Sequence record: PV467748.1
Reading direction: 5' to 3' (one strand)
Source of the DNA: a phage
Length of the DNA: 64,000 nt
This document shows, one piece after another, positions 255 through 63,985 of the stretch (its first letter is position 1; each line of letters opens with the position of its first letter). The notes under the pieces were generated by a model. It searched no databases. It was not told the origin of the DNA and saw only the letters and a list, made by a program, of their open reading frames with translations. The translations under genes and the position numbers were made by a program.

Positions 255-269
255 TATAAACCTTATTAT

Positions 270-287
270 GGGAGACTTCGGTCTCCC
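270..287. terminator. Hairpin gggagac-ttcg-gtctccc between gene 23 stop and convergent minus-strand ORF
   Basis: Perfect 7 bp stem with UUCG/CGAA loop, T-rich flank; lies between convergent genes. Confidence 0.5.
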
Positions 288-302
288 ATTCTTGTTTCTA
301 TA

Positions 303-1954: not shown

Positions 1955-3234
1955 TGTCTAAGATTGTAGACCTAATTAAAGAATCCACATTGACGGCTGC
2001 CAACTCGGTTGGCCGTCCTGCTCTTCTTTCATACACCCAAGCAACTAATAAACGAATCTTTAAAGCCTTAGTTGCTGAACAAAAAACAAGTCAACCTGTT
2101 GCCGCTCTGTACGGGGTTCGTGTACTTAATCCTGATGACAAAATGACTTATCTTGGTGGCGCTACATTTGCAGGCCAGATTGGTATGTCGGAACGTGAAA
2201 ATATTCCTGAATTTACCGATTCGTCTACAGCTTATGCAGCCGGCGATATGTTCCAGTTTGAAAGTGTAGTGTTTAAAGTTCTGGAAGCATCTCCTTTCGC
2301 CGGAACCACAGAAACTGACCTCGGTGAAGTTATTTCTGAAGCAGTGGCTGCTGGGCATATTCGTATGGTATCAGATGCGGCTATTACTTCTAAATTCGAA
2401 CAGGGCCATCCTGAAATTGCTGAAGCAGGCTTCCGTATTGATAAGTGGCAGACTGAAGTTAAATCACGTAAACTGAAAACTTCATTGACCGTCGAATTAG
2501 CCCAAGATCTAGAATCAAACGGGTTTAATGCTCCTAATTTCGTTGAAAACCTGCTAGGCATTCAAATGGCAGAAGAAATTAATAAGGACGTATTACAGTC
2601 ATTAATTACGGTGAGTTCTCGTTTTAAAGTCCAGGGTGTTTCCGAAAAGGGTGTATTGGACCTTACCAACCCACGTTACGATAATGCTCAGGACCGTGCT
2701 CGTACATTGTATTATTACATGTGTGAGATGAACTCTGCCGTACAACGCCAGACTTCTTTCGCTGGGACTTATGCAGTAGCTAGTTCTCGTTGTGCCGCTA
2801 TTCTTGCCGCATCTGGTTGGGTTGAGAAAAAGGAAGACCAAGACGAACTGGCTTACGGTATATTAAAAAATGGCCTGCCTCTTTATGCCGATATGAATAG
2901 TCCGTGTGATTATGTTATTGTTGGTGTAAATGCTCAGATGGGTGAAGGACAGACGGTCGCATCTTTATATTATGCGCCTTATACGGAAGGTTTGAATGAG
3001 GTTGATGAGGAAGGGGATACTTCAGTAGGTGAATTTAAGGTTATTGTTGACCCGGAAAGCTTACAACCTACAGTAGCATTGCTTGCTCGTTATGCATTGA
3101 CTGCAAACCCTTATACCGTCGCTAAGGACGATAAAGAAGCCCGCATTATTGATGGTTCTGATATGGACAAAATGGCTAATCAAAGTCAATTGAGTTCTTA
3201 TCTCGGTGTAAAATTACCACCTTTAGAAAAATAA
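1954..3234 (+). CDS. Second, diverged gp24-like capsid vertex protein paralog
   Basis: 426 aa, collinear with the upstream gp24 (shared LQSLITVS, YAPYTEGL, SLQP, ANPYTVAKDDKEAR blocks) but diverged; start overlaps upstream stop (TAATG). Confidence 0.8.
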   Translation: MSKIVDLIKESTLTAANSVGRPALLSYTQATNKRIFKALVAEQKTSQPVAALYGVRVLNPDDKMTYLGGATFAGQIGMSERENIPEFTDSSTAYAAGDMFQFESVVFKVLEASPFAGTTETDLGEVISEAVAAGHIRMVSDAAITSKFEQGHPEIAEAGFRIDKWQTEVKSRKLKTSLTVELAQDLESNGFNAPNFVENLLGIQMAEEINKDVLQSLITVSSRFKVQGVSEKGVLDLTNPRYDNAQDRARTLYYYMCEMNSAVQRQTSFAGTYAVASSRCAAILAASGWVEKKEDQDELAYGILKNGLPLYADMNSPCDYVIVGVNAQMGEGQTVASLYYAPYTEGLNEVDEEGDTSVGEFKVIVDPESLQPTVALLARYALTANPYTVAKDDKEARIIDGSDMDKMANQSQLSSYLGVKLPPLEK

Positions 3235-3236
3235 AA

Positions 3237-3257
3237 GGGACCGTGAGGTCCCTTTTT
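3237..3257. terminator. Hairpin gggacc-gtga-ggtccc plus T-run after gene 24 paralog
   Basis: 6 bp GC stem, GNRA-type loop, TTTTT on plus strand; also sits just 3' of convergent rnlB. Confidence 0.6.
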
Positions 3258-4676: not shown

Positions 4677-4694
4677 ATGGGCCTTGCGGCCCAT
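4677..4694 (-). terminator. Hairpin atgggcc-ttgc-ggcccat downstream of hoc
   Basis: 7 bp stem immediately 3' of hoc stop on minus strand; weak T-run, may be an RNA stability element rather than terminator. Confidence 0.35.
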
Positions 4695-8849: not shown

Positions 8850-9239
8850 TTAACCACTCTGTGAGAGCTGGATTCTAATTTGCTCTAATGTATCCGGGTC
8901 ATCAACTATACTAAACTGAACCGTCACTATAATCGAGTTATCATCATACACAGGTGTCACACCTACAGCCAGGGTAGAAATTCTGGGTTCGAAGTTCCGC
9001 ACAGCGGAAACTATATTACGCTTAATGGTATCCGTGATTAGTGGAGTAATATTCTCAAACAATTGGTTACTGATGTCACAACCAAATTCAGGCATAAAAG
9101 GGCGTGAACCTTTGCGAGTAGTAATAATGCCTAACAAACTATTTTTTACTGCACGAGCGCCTGTGGCTTTAGCGACGTCTCTATTCCAAGACGTCCTCAT
9201 TTCAGGGTCTAAATCTGAATACATTTTATTGATATTCAT
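8850..9239 (-). CDS. 25: Baseplate wedge protein gp25
   Basis: 129 aa; size and position after uvsY as in T4. Confidence 0.8.
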   Translation of the reverse strand: MNINKMYSDLDPEMRTSWNRDVAKATGARAVKNSLLGIITTRKGSRPFMPEFGCDISNQLFENITPLITDTIKRNIVSAVRNFEPRISTLAVGVTPVYDDNSIIVTVQFSIVDDPDTLEQIRIQLSQSG

Positions 9240-9862
9240 TACATCACCTTAAAGAACTCTTTAAGTCCCTCAATAACGTGGACGGTATGTTCACCACATT
9301 CACAAGAAATAGGTATAGCCAAAATAGGCTTAGGGGCGACTAGTGCATCATAAACTTCTTTTATGTCTTTTTCTGTTATCGCAGAATAAAGGTCATCAAG
9401 TTCCGCATCACTTAAATCGGAAAGAAAAAGCTTTTCGCCTGCAGAAGTTAAAATATAATCGATACACCCTGCGACCATCATAGCCCTATTTTTATCTTCA
9501 AAGAGTTTAGGATATCTGAAAACAATTTTAAAGTTGCCAAAGTCTTTAATAACATCCGGCTCTTTACCTAATGTTGCGCGAGTTAGTGTCATAGGGACAA
9601 CCTGTGAGCGACCGCAACTACAAACCCACTCACGTTCTATATTCACTTCAGCTAATGAATGGGCCCACAGGTTTATCACCAGGAGCTCAGATTCTTGCTT
9701 GTTTAAATCACGAGCATCTGTGCAATTCGAAATGAGTTCATTGATAAAGGACTCTATTCTGCCTTCTAATTTAGCTTGGAGCAAGTCCTTATACTCTCTG
9801 AGGGTAAATGCTCTGCATTTTATGGTTTTGTTTTTAATTTTTACGTCAAAAGTATAATTCAT
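9239..9862 (-). CDS. 26: Baseplate hub protein gp26
   Basis: 207 aa; divergent from gene 51 as in T4. Confidence 0.75.
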   Translation of the reverse strand: MNYTFDVKIKNKTIKCRAFTLREYKDLLQAKLEGRIESFINELISNCTDARDLNKQESELLVINLWAHSLAEVNIEREWVCSCGRSQVVPMTLTRATLGKEPDVIKDFGNFKIVFRYPKLFEDKNRAMMVAGCIDYILTSAGEKLFLSDLSDAELDDLYSAITEKDIKEVYDALVAPKPILAIPISCECGEHTVHVIEGLKEFFKVM

Positions 9863-16059: not shown

Positions 16060-16083
16060 AAAAAAGGAGAGCGTACGCTCTCC
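16060..16083. terminator. Bidirectional hairpin terminator ggagagcg-ta-cgctctcc between convergent gene 54 and alt-operon
   Basis: Perfect 8 bp stem; A-run on plus side gives T-run for minus-strand transcripts. Confidence 0.6.
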
Positions 16084-16092
16084 TTTAGGGGG

Positions 16093-22587: not shown

Positions 22588-22610
22588 AGAAAAAGGCCCG
22601 AAGGCCTTTA
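22588..22610 (-). terminator. Hairpin aaaggcc-cgaa-ggccttt with flanking A/T runs
   Basis: Palindromic hairpin between the small ORF ending at 22611 and alt; T-run on minus-strand RNA. Confidence 0.5.
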
Positions 22611-26059: not shown

Positions 26060-26346
26060 TAGAACCTCATCTGAAAGCCATGGGATTTAACATTACCACC
26101 ATAGATGTCAGAGGTATTGACTTCACGGGCGACACTTGGGTCGATGTTAATATCATGGTTGAGCTTAGTGATTGCTAGGGTGTCACGACCATTAACAGTA
26201 CGGAATTCTACTGGACATACAACATCGGCATAAGCCTTAATGGATTCACGAGTAGGCTGTTTGTCAGCAGGAACATCTTTACTTGCCTTAGAGAAAACAA
26301 CTTCACAGAAATTTTTACGAGTATCGAAATAAGTGGTCATAAACAT
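26059..26346 (-). CDS. Hypothetical protein, 95 aa
   Basis: ORF track 26059..26379 N-terminus translates an RNA hairpin; start moved to Met12 (MFMTTYF...) with GAGGA RBS. Confidence 0.45.
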   Translation of the reverse strand: MFMTTYFDTRKNFCEVVFSKASKDVPADKQPTRESIKAYADVVCPVEFRTVNGRDTLAITKLNHDINIDPSVAREVNTSDIYGGNVKSHGFQMRF

Positions 26347-26360
26347 AATATTTTCCTCAA

Positions 26361-26378
26361 TGGAGGCCGAAGCCTCCA
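26361..26378 (-). promoter_or_regulatory. Intercistronic RNA hairpin ggaggc-UUCG-gccucc just upstream of RBS
   Basis: Perfect stem with UUCG tetraloop on the minus-strand transcript; same hairpin recurs at 62990..63005. Confidence 0.5.
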
Positions 26379-26387
26379 TTTTTAAGA

Positions 26388-26753
26388 TTAGATATCGAAT
26401 TCATTCAGAACTACATCAAAGATTGCTTCCAGGTGTTCAGGTTTAGCTCGGTTGCTCAGGATGTGACGAATCCAGGTTTTAACCAGAAGCTTACGATTAG
26501 AACCGTTCCAGCAAGGATGGGTACCTAAATCACGTTGACGGAAATCGTCATCTAAAGCGATTTTAAAAGTAGAACCTTCCATAGTGATTGAAACCGTAAT
26601 ACCATTTTCAAAGCGCATGTAAACGTAGTTAGGAGTCATGCACTGTTCGATTTCACACACTGTACCGTTTTCGTGTTTCCACAGGCAAATAACTTCGGAA
26701 GAACCAGCGATACCGTTAGAAACATATTTACGTTCGAAGTTGATGTAGTTCAT
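26388..26753 (-). CDS. Hypothetical protein, 121 aa
   Basis: ORF track 26388..26846; start moved to Met32 (MNYINFERKY...) preceded by GGAG RBS inside the conserved leader. Confidence 0.5.
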   Translation of the reverse strand: MNYINFERKYVSNGIAGSSEVICLWKHENGTVCEIEQCMTPNYVYMRFENGITVSITMEGSTFKIALDDDFRQRDLGTHPCWNGSNRKLLVKTWIRHILSNRAKPEHLEAIFDVVLNEFDI

Positions 26754-27252: not shown

Positions 27253-27278
27253 AAAAATGGGACTCCGAAGAGTCCCAT
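27253..27278 (-). terminator. Intrinsic terminator (minus) after small basic ORF
   Basis: Hairpin tgggactc-cgaa-gagtccca followed on the transcript by UUUUUGUUU. Confidence 0.6.
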
Positions 27279-30680: not shown

Positions 30681-30742
30681 TTCGATTTCCTCATTTGTTT
30701 CGGTAGGACTACTATACCACAGTCCTACCATGATGTAAACAC

Positions 30743-35161: not shown

Positions 35162-35571
35162 TGCTTTATCCTATGTTGAGTATTCCAAGGTGGATTAAAT
35201 TTCTTTATGAACATTGGCTCTTCAAGAGACATGGTCTCAACTGACATAGTTCCAAGTTCGTTAGTCATCGACAGATTAAAGCACTGCCGTGCATAGAACT
35301 CCACCTTTTTACCTGCCATTAATGCTTCATGAATCAGAATGGACTTAGTCGAATCTGACGTTTGGTCCTTACGATTAATAGCTGTACGGTAGTAGTTGAT
35401 GCGCTTACGAAGATTTTTAGTCTTCCCGACGTAGACTAGTATATCATCAACCGCTATAGCATATATGACATTTTGTTTATTTGGTACTGTGAGTGGAGCT
35501 ATGGTGGCGTCATCTTGGAGTTCTAGGGTGACGTACTTGATAAAGCTAAATTCGTCTGCGATTTCTTTCAT
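35158..35571 (-). CDS. denA: Endonuclease II (GIY-YIG)
   Basis: ORF track 35158..35595 N-term translates a hairpin; Met9 start gives 137 aa; MKEIADEFSFIKY..., GIY-YIG-like VIYAIAVDDILVYVGKT. Confidence 0.85.
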   Translation of the reverse strand: MKEIADEFSFIKYVTLELQDDATIAPLTVPNKQNVIYAIAVDDILVYVGKTKNLRKRINYYRTAINRKDQTSDSTKSILIHEALMAGKKVEFYARQCFNLSMTNELGTMSVETMSLEEPMFIKKFNPPWNTQHRIKQ

Positions 35572-35579
35572 AGCAATAA

Positions 35580-35593
35580 GGGGCCGAAGCCCC
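35580..35593 (-). promoter_or_regulatory. Intercistronic RNA hairpin ggggc-UUCG-gcccc between nrdB and denA
   Basis: 5 bp GC stem with UUCG tetraloop on minus-strand RNA, immediately upstream of denA RBS. Confidence 0.5.
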
Positions 35594-35598
35594 ATTCC

Positions 35599-36777
35599 TT
35601 AAAAATATTTCTTGTACGATGCCATTACTTTTTCATCGACATCGTTATCAATTTGTGCTACAAGGTAAGAACTGATTTCCACTTCCTGAGGAGCAGCCTG
35701 TACAGCATCAGAGTTCAGGTATTCTCGAATCCAAGGATAAGGATGGCGAGTAGGGGCATCAGTAATAGGACATGGTAAGCCACATTGCTTCATACGAGAA
35801 ACTGTCAGGTAATCGACAAAAGCACCCATGTTCTGAGTATTTAATCCAGGGCAAGTACCATCTTTGAACAGGTGAGTGGCCCATTCTTTTTCTTGACGGT
35901 TAACTTCCATGAAAATATCAACGGCTTCTTGTTCGCACTCTTGAGCAATTTTAACCCATTCATCCCCATCAGTACCAAGTTGGAGTTGACGAATAATGTA
36001 CTGAGTACCCTTAAGGTGAAGCTGTTCATCACGTGCAATGAACTTCATAATCTTAGCATTACCTTCCATGATTTCCATGTTTTTATGGAAGTTAAAGGTG
36101 CATGCGAAAGATACATAAAAACGAATAGCTTCCAACGCGTTGATTACATGAAGGCAAAGGTAAAGGGATTTCATTAGCTCACGCTTCCAATACATCTCAT
36201 GCTCAATAGCATCTTCAATATCGTCTTCGTCTGCATTAATTTCTTTTTGGTATTCGATATCAGCTTTAGCATTCTGCCAATAGCGAGTTTTCTCAATAAC
36301 GTCATCATAGTAACGACCAATGGACTCGGCACGTTTCATGATAGCGTCGTCTAACAGAATTTCATCAAATACCTTAGATGGGTCTGTATAGAGGTTACGC
36401 ATGATATGGGTATACGAACGAGAGTGAATGGTTTCACTAAAGGTCCATGTAGCCACCCATGTATCAAGGCTAGGGTCTGAAATCAAGGCTTGAAGTGCAG
36501 CAGAAGGAGCACGTCCCTGGATACTGTCCAGAAGTGATTGATACTTCAGATTATTGGTAAAAATATTTTGCTGGAATTGTGGAAGCTTATTAAACTGGGC
36601 AGCATCCATCATCAAGTTAACTTCCTCTGGACGCCAGAAAAAACTCAACTGCTTCTCACAAAGCTCTTCGAATACTTTATGGCGTTGGATATCATAACGA
36701 GCAATACCCAATCCTGAACCAAAGAACATCGGTTCGACTAAAACATTAACTGGGGTAGTATTAAAAACTGTAGACAT
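35599..36777 (-). CDS. nrdB: Ribonucleotide reductase small subunit
   Basis: ORF track 35599..36807; Met11 start (MSTVFNTTPV...) matches recalled T4 NrdB N-terminus; continuous ORF, no intron. Confidence 0.9.
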   Translation of the reverse strand: MSTVFNTTPVNVLVEPMFFGSGLGIARYDIQRHKVFEELCEKQLSFFWRPEEVNLMMDAAQFNKLPQFQQNIFTNNLKYQSLLDSIQGRAPSAALQALISDPSLDTWVATWTFSETIHSRSYTHIMRNLYTDPSKVFDEILLDDAIMKRAESIGRYYDDVIEKTRYWQNAKADIEYQKEINADEDDIEDAIEHEMYWKRELMKSLYLCLHVINALEAIRFYVSFACTFNFHKNMEIMEGNAKIMKFIARDEQLHLKGTQYIIRQLQLGTDGDEWVKIAQECEQEAVDIFMEVNRQEKEWATHLFKDGTCPGLNTQNMGAFVDYLTVSRMKQCGLPCPITDAPTRHPYPWIREYLNSDAVQAAPQEVEISSYLVAQIDNDVDEKVMASYKKYF

Positions 36778-41962: not shown

Positions 41963-41989
41963 CCAAAAAGGGAAGACCGAAGTCTTCCC
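41963..41989 (-). terminator. Intrinsic terminator downstream of gene 32
   Basis: Hairpin gggaagac-UUCG-gucuuccc followed by UUUUU on minus-strand RNA, 17 nt after gene 32 stop. Confidence 0.65.
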
Positions 41990-49320: not shown

Positions 49321-50442
49321 ATGGAAAGATTTATGGCAGAATTTGGACAAGGATATGTCCAGGTTCCTACATTATCTGAAAACAATGCTGTAAGGTATAA
49401 ACTTAGTATAGCTGGTAGTTGTACTAAGTCTACCACAAAAGCATATGTTAAATTTCAAGATGGGAACTTCGGTTCCCAGAATTTTCAAAATGGATTAAAC
49501 CTTATAGAAATCGATGTTAGTGCCGAACCTAAAATCGTTGCTAACAAAACTTATAGTTTTACAAAAGATTTTGATGTTATTTCTGAAGCTTTTATAACGT
49601 ATATAAACTCTATACCAGCCAATAGAATAGTTTGTTTAGTATCTTCCGGTAGATTAAATGCTTCACAAAAACTTATCGATTGGTTCCGTGCAGCAGGAAG
49701 TACTGCATTTCCATCTAAATGGCTAATAGACCGCTTCGAGCCGTCTTATTCAGCGTTTTATGTTTCAGGAAGGAATGCTATAGTAATGGAACATGTGCTT
49801 TATAATGATGGGGTATTGGTCGAAGATGTTTCTACCCCATTAGAAGTCGTTTTTGACGACATCAGTGATGTCGGTGGTACAGGATATCCTGTCAGAATTG
49901 TTGAAGACGAAAGCACTTATCTAAGCAATGATGGAGATGAAATTAAGCGATTTCCTACCGAATCTCCTACTACCCCATTAACAGATTATAATATGAAACC
50001 AGGTGAATTCTTTTACCTTAAGTTTCAATTAATGTGCGACCAGGCTTTAAAAGACGTCGGGACTTCTCAGATGTCTGTTAGATTTTTTAATGCCTCAGGT
50101 GCTTTAACTGGGACAGTTAATATGGACGTTCCTTCCAACGTTCCTGCCGGTGCATGGATGACATTTGAACGGGTAGTAATGGTTCCTGAAGGTACTACAG
50201 ACTTTACCCTTTATGCCAGAAAAACAGCTTCGGCTGGCCAAGGTGGAGTTCGAAATGTTATGTTCGGTGAGATATCTGAATCAGAACCTCAGCCAAAACC
50301 TGCCGAATTTGGTGTTAACGGTATTCGTATGAACTTTGGTACAGAAACTAAAAATATGGGTACTACCATAGCCCAGCTATATGATAAAACAGGCACTAAA
50401 CCTGGACAGGTTTGGGTCGCCGAATTTAGAGAAAAATATTAA
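49321..50442 (+). CDS. 35: Long tail fibre hinge protein gp35
   Basis: 373 aa (T4 372 aa); position. Confidence 0.8.
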   Translation: MERFMAEFGQGYVQVPTLSENNAVRYKLSIAGSCTKSTTKAYVKFQDGNFGSQNFQNGLNLIEIDVSAEPKIVANKTYSFTKDFDVISEAFITYINSIPANRIVCLVSSGRLNASQKLIDWFRAAGSTAFPSKWLIDRFEPSYSAFYVSGRNAIVMEHVLYNDGVLVEDVSTPLEVVFDDISDVGGTGYPVRIVEDESTYLSNDGDEIKRFPTESPTTPLTDYNMKPGEFFYLKFQLMCDQALKDVGTSQMSVRFFNASGALTGTVNMDVPSNVPAGAWMTFERVVMVPEGTTDFTLYARKTASAGQGGVRNVMFGEISESEPQPKPAEFGVNGIRMNFGTETKNMGTTIAQLYDKTGTKPGQVWVAEFREKY

Positions 50443-50464
50443 GGAACCTTCGGGTTCCTTTTTC
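50443..50464 (+). terminator. Intrinsic terminator after gene 35
   Basis: Hairpin ggaacc-ttcg-ggttcc followed by TTTTTCGTTTTC. Confidence 0.6.
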
Positions 50465-54100: not shown

Positions 54101-54476
54101 CGATAGCTATTCAACATTTGTTCGTGACGTTTATGTTCGTTCTGATATTCGTGTTAAAAAAGACCTTGTTAAATTTGAAAATGCTTCACAGACACTTTCA
54201 AAAATTAACGGTTACACTTATATGCAGAAACGTGGCCTAGATGAAGAAGGTAATCAGAAATGGGAACCTAACGCCGGTTTGATAGCTCAAGAAGTTCAAG
54301 CTATTTTACCAGAATTAGTTGAAGGTGACCCTGATGGTGAAGCTTTACTTCGTTTGAACTATAACGGTGTAATTGGTTTAAATACAGCTGCAATCAATGA
54401 GCATACTGCAGAAATTGCAGAATTGAAATCAGAGATTGAAGAACTTAAAGCATTAATTAAATCATTGTTAAAATAA
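51174..54476 (+). CDS. 37: Long tail fibre distal subunit gp37 with C-terminal intramolecular chaperone domain
   Basis: 1100 aa; position; C-terminal about 110 aa carries autoproteolysis-type motif SDIRVK (Ser990) and chaperone-domain-like helix. Confidence 0.85.
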
Positions 54477-54480
54477 TAAG

Positions 54481-54496
54481 AGGGGCTTCGGCCCCT
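54481..54496 (+). promoter_or_regulatory. Intercistronic hairpin aggggc-UUCG-gcccct between genes 37 and 38
   Basis: 6 bp stem with UUCG loop immediately upstream of GGAGG RBS of gene 38. Confidence 0.45.
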
Positions 54497-54507
54497 TGGA
54501 GGTTTAT

Positions 54508-55305
54508 ATGGCAGTAGCAGGACCGTGGATAGGAACTTCTGCATTAGCTAATACAGGACAAAATTGGATGGGCGGCGCTGCCCAACGATTGAGAATGGGC
54601 GCCCCGTTTTGGATGAGTAATATGAACGGTCGGTCTGTTGAAGTAATTCATACCATAACAGCAAACCATAACTTTAACGGGCAATGGTTCCGCGACCGCT
54701 GTTTTGAAGCAGGCAGCGCACCTATTGTGTTTAATATCACAGGCGATATAGTATCTTACGACCGTAATGTTCCATTGTTCTTTATGAATGCGGATACTCC
54801 AAACGAATACGTTGTTTTGAATATTCATGGTGGGGTTCATATGTGGGGCCGAGGCGGCCACGGTGGGTGGACCCATTCAGGTGGCGACGGTAACGGTCAA
54901 TGGGGTGGTGATTGTATAGTCAACCACATAGGTCATAGACTACGTATTTGGAACTATGGGGTTATCTGTGGTGGTGGCGGTGGCGGTGGTGGCATTGCGT
55001 ATCGTCCTCACTCAGGTGCTAACTGGCAAGATATCGGTGGTGGTGGTGGACGTCCATTTGGTCCTGGTGGCGGTGGTGGATACTCCGGCGGTGGTGCTTC
55101 TTATGAAAGCCCCGGCGGTGGATACAATTATGGTAACGCCCACTCAGGTCATGGCGGTGATGCTGGCGCCGCAGGCCAGAACGCATGGAATGATGGTGGT
55201 AAAGTTCTTAAAGTTGGGGCCGGCGGCGGTTCTGGGGCTGCTGTCGCCGGTTCTGCTCCTGCATGGGGAGCGACAGGTACGATTTACGGGCCTTGGCTTA
55301 GTTAA
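54508..55305 (+). CDS. 38: T2-type gp38 receptor-recognising adhesin (glycine-rich motifs)
   Basis: Start at Met5 after GGAGG RBS; conserved N-terminal attachment domain ([27 protein letters not shown]), poly-Gly motifs [22 protein letters not shown] alternating with variable segments. Confidence 0.85.
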
Positions 55306-58380: not shown

Positions 58381-58403
58381 CCTTTTTGCACTAAACCAAA
58401 AAA

Positions 58404-58419
58404 GGAACCCGAAGGTTCC
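58404..58419 (-). terminator. Hairpin ggaacc-UUCG-gguucc plus U-run downstream of gene 52 operon
   Basis: 6 bp stem, UUCG loop, followed by UUUUUUGG on minus-strand RNA. Confidence 0.55.
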
Positions 58420-58524
58420 TTACTTTTTAAAGTGGGCTGCTATTAAACCTATAGCTAAGCCTGTCGCCAGGCCTAGGATAACAACAAAGATGCAGAGTAA
58501 AAAGAACTCGACTCCAAGGCTCAT
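58420..58524 (-). CDS. Small hydrophobic peptide, 34 aa (not in ORF track)
   Basis: Hand-translated MSLGVEFFLLCIFVVILGLATGLAIGLIAAHFKK; ATG overlaps gene 52 stop (ATGA). Confidence 0.35.
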   Translation of the reverse strand: MSLGVEFFLLCIFVVILGLATGLAIGLIAAHFKK

Positions 58525-60045: not shown

Positions 60046-60206
60046 TTCTTGACCAAGGCTTCCAGAAATTTAACGATTGCATCAATTACGAACCAAGTGC
60101 AAATAAATCCAACAGCGAAAGGACCTGGAACCCACACACCAGCAGCAAAAAGGGTTACCCACACAATAACAATCACGAGCCAGATAAAAGTATAAATCGG
60201 TAGCAT
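60042..60206 (-). CDS. Small membrane protein, 54 aa, possibly ac-like (not in ORF track)
   Basis: Hand-translated MLPIYTFIWLVIVIVWVTLFAAGVWVPGPFAVGFICTWFVIDAIVKFLEALVKK; GAGGA RBS; UUCG hairpin (60220..60233) upstream. Confidence 0.4.
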   Translation of the reverse strand: MLPIYTFIWLVIVIVWVTLFAAGVWVPGPFAVGFICTWFVIDAIVKFLEALVKK

Positions 60207-60293
60207 AATTTCCTCACAAGCGTCCGAAGACGCCTTTAGTTTTAAGATTGTTACGATAGAACTGCATCACATGTTCGTTATGGAAATTACTCA

Positions 60294-60743
60294 TTAGTAA
60301 GCCTGCAGGATGAATTTAAAGTTATCAGCCAACATACGGTTCATTTCTTCCAGGGTCTGGAAGTCGGAACTATGATTGCGAGTGAAAGCCATTGCAATTT
60401 GACCCTTACCAAAACCTGTAGTCAGAGGTTTCATTTTAGAAGCCGGCACATAAAGAACTTCGTACACTACACCGTTCACTGCCATAGTGCGAGCTGATTG
60501 AGAACGTTTCTTACGAATGTTAGCCACAATACCATCAAGACCTTGAGCTGAACGTTGATTACCGACATAAAAACGAGCAGCTACGACACGGGAATCAGCG
60601 CCACCTTTAACAAAGAAGTAGAAGCCTGGTTGAGCAGAGATTTCTTTAGAAGGTTTACCATTTTGGTATTCACCATTCTTAACATAAGCAACAGTAGTAG
60701 CACCAGCAGACAGAACGTTACGGCGAGTCATATAAGTATTCAT
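60294..60743 (-). CDS. ndd: Ndd nucleoid disruption protein
   Basis: 149 aa; [35 protein letters not shown]-term [20 protein letters not shown] parallel recalled T4 Ndd. Confidence 0.9.
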
Positions 60744-62788: not shown

Positions 62789-62978
62789 CGAAATAAGAAA
62801 TACGAACCTCTAAACAATGAGCATAAGCACCCATCGCATCCAGTTGTGCAATCAGTAACCCTTGTTGACGGATATCAAGAGTTTCAAAAACACCGCCTTT
62901 AATAAAGGTTTCTAGTGCATTAATTTTAAGAACCAACTGGTCGTATTCTTCAACTACACGTGCTTGGAAACCTAACAT
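62781..62978 (-). CDS. Hypothetical protein, 65 aa
   Basis: ORF with RBS GAGGA immediately after UUCG hairpin. Confidence 0.45.
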   Translation of the reverse strand: MLGFQARVVEEYDQLVLKINALETFIKGGVFETLDIRQQGLLIAQLDAMGAYAHCLEVRISYFGE

Positions 62979-62989
62979 AATTCCTCATT

Positions 62990-63005
62990 AGGAGGCCGAA
63001 GCCTC
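62990..63005 (-). promoter_or_regulatory. Intercistronic RNA hairpin ggaggc-UUCG-gccucc downstream of rIIB
   Basis: Identical hairpin to 26361..26378; immediately upstream of next RBS. Confidence 0.5.
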
Positions 63006-63016
63006 CGTTTATTGAT

Positions 63017-63985
63017 TTAGTATTTGTATTCGTTTGCGAACTGTTCAGTGACGTCTTCCAGAACTTCATAATAACATACGCGCATTTTAGCATCACCGTA
63101 ATCGACTGGGATACTAACAACATCACGTGGGTTAACTTTACATGAAACTACTTTACAGTTTGAGCTACCAAAATGTCTGATATAGCTACGAGAGCAAACG
63201 TGCAGACCTGTTGAACAAGTTACTTCGTCGTCATCATTTACACGCGAACGAGGCATTTTAACTGGCTTACCTGGCGAGTTATCAAACGTACCGGTACGGC
63301 AGTCGGTGTAATCGGAGTTAACTACCTTCCACGTAATAAAGTGGCCGTCTTCAGTGATTTTGATATCGTTTGCAACCAGGAAGTCAAACAAACGCTGTAC
63401 AGCTTTTTCGCTTGGGTTTTCTAACAGATTCTCAAGGAACGGCAGGTAGAATTCGAAGTCTTCACCATTTTCCATTGAGGTGATAATACGGTCAATCAAC
63501 CCTGAACGCAATTCGATACCTTGATAAACCAGACGTCCACCTTCAATACGAACGTTACCTTTAACAAATGCTTTAACAGCTTCTTTAATAGAAATCAGTT
63601 TAATTGCATCATCGAAACGGGATTCTTTAAGAGCCTGTACGATGGCATCGAAATGTTTGTTCTTATTAGTGGTGTTCCATACTGTACGGCCTTCAGTGAT
63701 GGATACGAATTTAGAACTGGCATTCCAAATAATTTCAGGACGAGAACCACCAATAGTAGCTTCAACAGGAACTACACGAGGCTCGTTAGGAACTGTTACT
63801 TTGATATTTCCGGTAATAACCACTTGCGAACGTTTAGCTTCTTCAGCATTTTTCAGGACTTTACGAATGGTATCAACCGAAACACCATACCAGTCAGCTA
63901 GTTCTTGCTGAGTATAATTACCAGATTTATAGAGGGAAACTACTTTCTCTTGTTCAGATTTAGCCAGACACTTAATATTGTACAT
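63017..63985 (-). CDS. rIIB: rIIB membrane-associated protein
   Basis: 322 aa; near-collinear with recalled T4 rIIB (MYNIKCL.K.EQ, SGNYTQQELADW.GVSVDTIR.VLKNAEEAKR, FLENLLENPS, RVNDDD, CYYEVLEDVTEQFA). Confidence 0.95.
   Translation of the reverse strand: MYNIKCLAKSEQEKVVSLYKSGNYTQQELADWYGVSVDTIRKVLKNAEEAKRSQVVITGNIKVTVPNEPRVVPVEATIGGSRPEIIWNASSKFVSITEGRTVWNTTNKNKHFDAIVQALKESRFDDAIKLISIKEAVKAFVKGNVRIEGGRLVYQGIELRSGLIDRIITSMENGEDFEFYLPFLENLLENPSEKAVQRLFDFLVANDIKITEDGHFITWKVVNSDYTDCRTGTFDNSPGKPVKMPRSRVNDDDEVTCSTGLHVCSRSYIRHFGSSNCKVVSCKVNPRDVVSIPVDYGDAKMRVCYYEVLEDVTEQFANEYKY

Follow-up and report, generated by a model that had tools for sequence, protein, structure and literature searches.

Sense-strand C(UUCG)G hairpins at gene junctions of a T4-like coliphage, with and without a U-tract

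The DNA analyzed here is a 64,000-nt stretch of sequence record PV467748.1, which we refer to in its entirety as the window. It belongs to a T4-like coliphage (Dhakavirus) with ~93% identity to IME08. Between the end of gene 23 and rIIB, it is collinear with the annotated records of IME08 and T4. The right end, which carries rIIB, denB, and ndd, is 92–94% identical to Dhakavirus coliphages (IME08, JS10, and relatives), and the middle of the window matches the same phages. The G+C content is ~40%, and non-coding sequence makes up ~6% of the window. Genes 23 and 24 are separated by a 417-nt spacer (255–670) that contains only short ORFs, on either strand; in T4, the homing endonuclease segD occupies this place. 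Elsewhere, an 11-bp hairpin (−15.4 kcal/mol; 30694–30742, minus strand) overlaps a strong early-promoter-like site (TTTACA, 17 nt, TATAGT) just upstream of an SD, with the −10 element inside the 8-nt loop of the hairpin.

The junction between rIIB and denB.1, read on the minus strand, contains the hairpin GGAGGC-UUCG-GCCUCC (62991..63006; −10.8 kcal/mol), which has no U-tract on the sense strand. The rIIB stop codon is at 63017–63019, the denB.1 SD (GAGG) is at 62983–62986, and the denB.1 AUG is at 62976–62978. The original prediction placed this hairpin at 62990..63005, one nucleotide off, and listed four more; all five exist on the strands it gave, and RNAfold recovers each of them in its local context. 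Between 30.7 and 30.6, also on the minus strand, the hairpin AAUGGAGGC-UUCG-GCCUCCAUU (26359..26380; −14.4 kcal/mol) is a 9-bp extension of a core at 26362..26377; the 30.7 stop codon is at 26388–26390, and the SD (GAGG) and AUG of 30.6 are at 26355–26358 and 26344–26346. On the plus strand, GAGGGGC-UUCG-GCCCCUU lies between genes 37 and 38 (54480..54497), bordered directly on its 5′ side by the double stop of gene 37 (54474–54479) and directly on its 3′ side by the gene 38 SD (GGAGG, 54498–54502), with the AUG at 54508–54510. The remaining two hairpins are both on the minus strand: GGGGC-UUCG-GCCCC, between nrdB and denA (35580..35593), separates the denA SD from its AUG, and AGGCGUC-UUCG-GACGCUU (60218..60235) falls in the last codons of the stp ORF (60214–60294). 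The claim that each hairpin sits between the stop codon of one gene and the RBS of the next is thus correct for three sites; it fails at 60218..60235, which is inside stp, and at 35580..35593, where the SD is upstream of the hairpin.

None of these five hairpins is followed by a U-tract. The 8 nt after the four RBS-adjacent hairpins contain 0–3 U residues and lead into a purine-rich SD, and a consensus terminator scan made no sense-strand call at any of the four. The 35580 hairpin passes a lenient terminator scan, yet it sits between an SD and its AUG.

The stp ORF is a conserved 26-codon homologue of T4 stp that was too short for the ORF track. T4 stp is the activator of the host PrrC anticodon nuclease. 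The start of stp overlaps the ndd stop codon, and its UGA stop (60214–60216) overlaps the SD of the next gene (GAGG, 60212–60215), whose AUG is at 60204–60206. The UUCG hairpin encodes the C-terminal residues KGVFGR of stp. What follows GVFGR is variable (Q, L, P, or an immediate stop after R), whereas the stem is kept. T4 has an identical hairpin-in-stp arrangement at stp/ac, and the hairpin is absent from relatives with another ORF after ndd. At this site, the hairpin is inseparable from selection on the peptide.

We surveyed the whole window for C(UUCG)G-loop hairpins whose stems are 5 bp or longer and include three or more G-C pairs, using 300 dinucleotide shuffles as the control. There are 12 such hairpins in the window, compared with a mean of 0.11 (maximum 2) in the shuffles, and CTTCGG occurs 39 times, compared with 19.1 ± 4.2. 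The original prediction had proposed this comparison with shuffled sequence; its list of five was incomplete, with seven further C(UUCG)G hairpins in the window. Only two of the 12 overlap coding sequence, those in stp and gene 35; the other ten are strictly non-coding. The gene 35 hairpin, UGGGAAC-UUCG-GUUCCCA (49461..49478, plus strand), has a 7-bp stem at about codon 47 and is absent from IME08; an origin by pure chance is unlikely, given that 0.11 such hairpins are expected per window. Stems are 5–9 bp long in the five listed hairpins and the seven others, each with at least three G-C pairs, and predicted nearest-neighbor stabilities range from −9.0 to −14.7 kcal/mol. C(UUCG)G hairpins make up nine of the 16 sense-strand intergenic tetraloop hairpins as scored (11 of 18 once two false ORF extensions are corrected) and 10 of the ~17 stable hairpins located within 20 nt of a stop codon. 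The false N-terminal extensions flagged by the original prediction in the ORF track (MEASAS..., MGLRPLIA...) are real. A scan of the whole window with Rfam covariance models returned no matches at gathering thresholds.

The hairpins have a strong orientation bias. Every one of the 12 hairpins in the window has its UUCG loop on the sense strand. As an independent replicate, we scanned 100 kb of IME08 outside the span of the window and found 12 more C(UUCG)G hairpins, 11 of them sense, making 23 of 24 overall; the lone antisense hairpin is the weakest, with a 5-bp stem that includes a G.U pair, and lies within a coding region. G.U pairs are also present in the sense stems at 54480 and 60218 and in one relative (L113). 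Because a G.U pair in the sense stem becomes an A.C mismatch in antisense RNA, these pairs, together with the strand bias, indicate that the hairpins are RNA elements under selection on the mRNA. The two arms of the stem also differ in composition: the 5′ arm is purine-rich in all 12 hairpins (67 of 90 bases, the closing base always being C) and the 3′ arm is pyrimidine-rich. The reverse polarity, with a pyrimidine-rich 5′ arm, occurs in none of the 12, and the rIIB and 37/38 hairpins of relatives have the same polarity as those of the window.

Six of the other hairpins are followed by a U-tract, with 3–7 U residues in the next 8 nt (5–7 in five of the six). These are the gene 23 terminator (268..289, plus strand), a C(UUCG)G hairpin followed by a U-run, where T4 has AGGGAACC-UUCG-GGUUCCCU and a U-run at the same position; a terminator-like hairpin between alt.1 and alt (22592..22609, minus strand), AAAGGCC-UUCG-GGCCUUU followed by UUCUGG, kept in T4 and IME08; the 30.9/30.8 terminator (27257..27278, minus strand), with UUUUGUUUCU after the hairpin, a junction at which the T4 stem is different; the gene 32 terminator, downstream of that gene (41970..41989, minus strand), in which the hairpin is followed by UUUUU and then a GTTTACA promoter-like motif; the terminator between genes 35 and 36 (50441..50460, plus strand), AAGGAACC-UUCG-GGUUCCUU and a U-run, which overlaps the gene 35 stop codon; and the terminator upstream of motA (58402..58421, minus strand), a 20-nt hairpin identical to the one at 50441, followed by a U-run and a GTTTAC motif. 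GTTTAC-type promoter motifs follow the hairpins at 41970 and 58402 and several in IME08. Of these six, the consensus scan made sense-strand terminator-like calls at three (27257, 50441, and 58402). Judged by hairpin and U-tract together, all six (268, 22592, 27257, 41970, 50441, and 58402) appear to be intrinsic terminators.

Some stems recur exactly. The 20-nt hairpin AAGGAACCTTCGGGTTCCTT is found at unrelated terminators (50441–50460 on the plus strand, 58402–58421 on the minus strand, and after soc in IME08 at L139 14407–14426), and GGAGGCTTCGGCCTCC is present at both 26362 and 62991. Such recurrence may have arisen by convergence on favorable stems or through cassettes recombining with one another. 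The two pairs described as near-identical are so as sequences, but identical stems recur at terminators (50441, 58402) as well. Other terminators in the window use other loops. After hoc (4677–4694, minus strand), there is AUGGGCC-GCAA-GGCCCAU followed by a U-run, where IME08 and T4 have UUCG hairpins with other stems. The convergent gene ends at 16063–16086 (54/alt.-3) and 3233–3256 (a tail-fibre-like gene/rnlB) have 10-bp hairpins with U-rich tails on both strands, and their loops, GUAC (which is palindromic) and GUGA/UCAC, work both ways; neither has a UUCG loop.

The hairpin after rIIB is widely conserved. We compared 48 loci with rIIB identities from 96% down to ~40%, and scored covariation on 17 distinct sequences; rows were anchored on the best hairpin at each locus, so the alignment leans toward structure. 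A tetraloop hairpin lies just after the rIIB stop codon at 41 of the 48 loci, with a UUCG loop at 31 of these 41 and mostly UUUG, UCCG, CUUG, UCAG, or GCAA at the rest. The stems include GGAGGC, GGGGC, AAGGGC, GGGGAC, AGGAGCC, AAGGGCC, and AAGGGAC. Even so, 98% of alignment cells are paired, five of the six pairs have changes on both sides, and the closing C-G pair is invariant; none of 500 shuffles reached the covariation score, and sliding the pairing partners out of register abolishes the signal. Conservation extends to other junctions. The order of stop codon, GC-rich hairpin, SD, and AUG is kept in most of 43 loci at 37/38, with variable stems and mostly UUCG loops (two loci, L072 and L075, were mis-scored by the automatic hairpin picker and were read by eye). 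At 30.7/30.6, relatives alternate between GGAGGC/GCCUCC and GGGGC/GCCCC stems, with UUCG, UUUG, UUCA (in T4), or GAAA loops. Across orthologous sites, the loops that replace UUCG include GCAA, GAAA, UUCA, UUUG, UCCG, and UUAG. These swaps fit a stability role and do not point to a specific mechanism; a UUCG loop is not strictly required. T4 itself has C(UUCG)G hairpins at five of the same junctions (alt.1/alt, 30.9/30.8, 37/38, stp/ac, and rIIB/denB.1) and at the gene 23 terminator, in agreement with the original assignment of the hairpins to the type known from T4 intercistronic regions, and it has a UUCA or GCAA loop variant at two further junctions.

The sequence that follows the rIIB hairpin is far less constant. 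In many lineages, the hairpin and a U-run form a canonical terminator, with 5–7 U residues in the next 8 nt at L013, L014, L022–L025, L027–L030, L032–L034, L036, L037, L041, and L043. The U-run is lacking in the lineage of the window (UAAUGAGG) and in the T4 lineage (AACUAAGG); the number of U residues is one or two in the window lineage and most of the T4 lineage, and three in two T4-lineage loci with a UUUG loop. Several lineages that differ in the U-run have the same gene downstream of the hairpin. Across these comparisons, the hairpin is what stays constant, with the U-tract and the SD arranged around it.

The nrdB/denA junction has a different organization: UAAGGAAU-GGGGC-UUCG-GCCCC-UUAUUGCU-AUG, with the SD (UAAGGA) upstream of the hairpin and the AUG 8 nt downstream. 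The SD core (AAGGA, 35596–35600) overlaps the nrdB stop codon (35599–35601), and the denA AUG is at 35569–35571. Five lineages keep the series of UAAGGA, hairpin, 7–8 nt, and AUG, with GGGGC, CAGGGC, UAGGGC, or GGGCC stems and UUCG, GCAA, or GUAA loops, and L058–L060 have no alternative upstream start codon for denA. The denA start looks mis-annotated in RefSeq for both T4 (a GUG; L004 1935–1960) and IME08 (an AUG; L002 2451–2466), where it lies 0–1 nt after the SD. Both annotated starts read through the hairpin; the conserved AUG, 7–8 nt past the hairpin, gives a protein of 136–137 aa. In a separate case from IME08, a C(UUCG)G hairpin upstream of gene 43 (L139 30491–30510; AAAGGGAC-UUCG-GUCCCUUU-UGGAGUAUAAUG) abuts the SD of this DNA polymerase gene, and the annotated gene 43 start (TTG) lies at the final stem base. 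In T4, the translational operator hairpin of gene 43 has a UAAC loop.

Among the five listed sites, an SD upstream and an AUG downstream of a stable hairpin are found at 35580–35593 only; the other four have the SD downstream, that of stp overlapping the stop codon. The separation of the denA SD and AUG is ~24 nt when unfolded, and folding of the hairpin would shorten it to ~10 nt. Split (“accommodated”) ribosome-binding sites have been described for T4 genes 38 and 25 (Nivinskas et al. 1999; Malys and Nivinskas 2009; as reviewed in PMC3014915). The nrdB/denA site has the same SD-hairpin-AUG order, the same ~10-nt folded spacing, and compensatory changes, unlike the other four sites, where the SD is downstream of the hairpin. 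By analogy with genes 38 and 25, the nrdB/denA hairpin most likely doubles as a split-RBS spacer; denA is not among the cases presented in the review (PMC3014915). In the published split RBS of T4 gene 38, the SD is 5′ of the 37/38 hairpin, whereas the phage studied here has essentially the same hairpin with GGAGG 3′ of it. The window also contains the known gene 25 split RBS, within the end of gene 26 (9239–9267, minus strand: GAGGG, CUUAAAG-AGUU-CUUUAAG, GUGAUGUA-AUG); its hairpin is AU-rich and does not have a UUCG loop.

At four of the five sites, the hairpin ends 10–12 nt before the AUG, i.e., 0–4 nt before the SD, and proximity is kept in relatives: 12–19 nt from hairpin to AUG after rIIB (longer with an intervening U-run), ~10–18 nt at 37/38, and 0–5 nt from hairpin to SD at 30.7/30.6. 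A fast-folding hairpin just 5′ of an SD might organize translation initiation, by insulating the RBS against pairing with coding sequence upstream or by stacking on the SD:anti-SD helix, and so raise or standardize initiation of the downstream gene; RNA structure does aid initiation at T4 genes 38 and 25 (PMC3014915). When the hairpin was removed in silico, the RBS became less likely to be unpaired: the predicted probability fell 8.5-fold at 30.7/30.6, 5.3-fold at 37/38, and 15-fold at stp, but only 1.1-fold at the primary rIIB/denB.1 site. Absolute predicted accessibilities are low in all constructs, and the result hints weakly at an RBS-insulating role. The spacing itself has a simpler explanation. 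Among the 77 same-strand junctions there are 23 gene overlaps, 14 spacers of 1–15 nt, and two of 16–25 nt (39 of 77 overlapping or within 25 nt). Four spacers are 26–50 nt long; three of these contain a UUCG hairpin, and the remaining one lacks a hairpin but has a late-promoter-like ATAAATA motif. Since the spacers of this genome are minimal and accommodate nothing beyond the RBS, SD adjacency is expected of any hairpin inserted into them. Closeness to the RBS mostly reflects this compaction. Moreover, T4 has its gene 38 SD on the opposite side of this 37/38 hairpin, and the U-tract terminators are equally close to the next SD, so the hairpin needs no fixed relation to the SD. We consider a general role in initiation quite unlikely. 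The idea that the hairpins are systematically positioned relative to RBSs survives as a description of four of the five sites, and is weakened by the fact that half of the hairpins are, by their sequence, terminators and that compaction accounts for the adjacency.

The same hairpins might instead stop or pause some RNA polymerases, acting as leaky terminators that are tuned by gain or loss of the U-tract to set downstream transcription. The module is identical to that of the six U-tract terminators in the window, and many lineages have a U-run after the rIIB hairpin, which makes it a full terminator, several of them with the same downstream gene. Intrinsic termination, however, normally needs a U-rich tract directly after the stem, where these sites have the few U residues and the purine-rich SD described above and draw no sense-strand calls from the consensus scan; in addition, the stp hairpin is translated and the nrdB/denA hairpin is within an RBS. 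This makes leaky termination unlikely. Termination on the opposite strand, where the A-rich tract 5′ of the hairpin would be a U-tract that stops, e.g., late transcripts entering early genes, is suggested by terminator-like calls at 54481–54496 (minus strand), 60220–60233 (plus strand), and 62991–63006 (plus strand), and by 5′ flanks with 4–6 A residues in 8 nt, against a mean of 2.9 and at least five in only 12% of genes. We think it very unlikely, given the high background of the scan (24 found vs. 14 in shuffles), the CGAA loop that antisense RNA would have when UUCG is sense in 12 of 12, and the GUAC or GUGA/UCAC loops used by the true two-way terminators at the convergent ends. The A-rich flank is also unconserved at the rIIB site, where the T4-lineage stem begins in the stop codon. 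Lastly, stems shared exactly by unrelated sites (one at 26362 and 62991, another at 50441, at 58402, and after soc in IME08) might mark cruciform or recombination sequences, mobile cassettes without an RNA role, or chance; PeSLs, which are stem-loop and promoter cassettes, have been proposed to mediate shuffling in T4-type genomes (PMC4122927). This idea is largely refuted by the strand bias of 23 of 24 and by the compensatory changes at orthologous sites, and we find it barely credible: G.U pairs work in sense RNA only, UUCG stabilizes RNA hairpins whereas TTCG does not stabilize DNA ones (PMC2864571), and no promoter adjoins the U-tract-less hairpins. Two further candidates were rejected. 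The hairpins are not RNase III sites, the stems being merely 5–9 bp, and they are not RegB endonuclease targets: the SDs after them are GAGG(A) and not GGAG, and the GGAG within GGAGGC stems is base-paired. RNA structure protects against RegB (PMC3014915).

On balance, we lean toward the hairpins being the standard C(UUCG)G mRNA module of T4-type phages, which acts as a terminator when a U-tract is present and as read-through mRNA punctuation when it is absent. The phage would use one extra-stable module, on the transcribed strand, wherever a compact and reliably folding intergenic stem-loop is needed. With a U-tract behind it, as at six sites, often followed by a promoter, the module would act as an intrinsic terminator; without one, as at the five listed sites, transcription would read through. 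Hairpins of the latter kind would then block 3′-to-5′ exonucleases, such that the upstream cistron (rIIB, 30.7, gene 37, nrdB, or stp) would outlive downstream cleavage, and where cleavage occurs in the AU-rich spacer just 5′ of the hairpin, the hairpin could cap the downstream message. Such a stabilizing role is the most likely one for the U-tract-less hairpins by analogy with other systems. A CUUCGG hairpin has been reported to stabilize T4 gene 32 mRNA (PMC8948821), and 3′-to-5′ exonucleases and RNase E act on T4 mRNA (PMC3014915); a search of the T4 transcriptome and RNA-end mapping literature returned nothing usable. A more ambitious version is tentative and may well be wrong. It holds that the U-tract-less, SD-abutting hairpins could be a distinct, conserved “decay boundary” class that sets the expression of neighboring cistrons, that gain or loss of the U-tract would let lineages convert one and the same site from full terminator to read-through boundary or back, and that nrdB/denA would be a third, undescribed split RBS.

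These hairpins resemble several known elements. The intergenic regions of T4, a member of the group in which such hairpins were first described, are rich in C(UUCG)G hairpins (Tuerk et al. 1988, PNAS 85:1364, as cited in PMC8948821). The hairpins found here have the same loop, the same closing C-G pair, a GC-rich stem of 5–9 bp, and a mainly intergenic location on the transcribed strand, in the same phage family. Nothing essential differs; stem sequences vary, and some sites swap UUCG for GNRA or near-UUCG loops. T4-type phages also have intrinsic terminators and terminator-promoter cassettes, the PeSLs (Arbiol et al. 2010, PMC2839356; Comeau et al. 2014, PMC4122927). Half of the 12 hairpins share the U-tract of these elements, several with GTTTAC-type motifs afterward, and the rIIB hairpin is a terminator in other lineages. 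In contrast, the five listed sites have no U-tract and no adjoining promoter, nor room for one, their spacers of 27–41 nt being filled by the hairpin and the RBS. Outside phages, a parallel is found in the REP hairpins between malE and malF, bacterial intercistronic stabilizers that are stem-loops without a U-tract and are proposed to block 3′-to-5′ exonucleases and so prolong the life of the upstream cistron. REP hairpins are longer, imperfect palindromes with no sequence relationship to those described here, whose similar function we infer.

The class of feature is therefore already known, an ordinary element of T4-type phages, and our understanding of T4 biology is unchanged. The additions are modest: a site-level switch between terminator and read-through element across lineages, a candidate split RBS for denA, a change in the side on which the SD lies at 37/38, and a hairpin at stp that is also coding. 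There are practical consequences for annotation. The hairpins mislead ORF callers, as with denA in the RefSeq records of T4 and IME08 and with 30.6 in the ORF track of the window, which begin inside or before the hairpin, and they hide tiny genes such as stp; they probably also mark transcript and decay boundaries. If it is true that the U-tract-less class sets differential cistron stability, expression from polycistronic messages could be tuned with the hairpins as a compact, portable part, and they would also offer a tractable case of terminators evolving into read-through elements.
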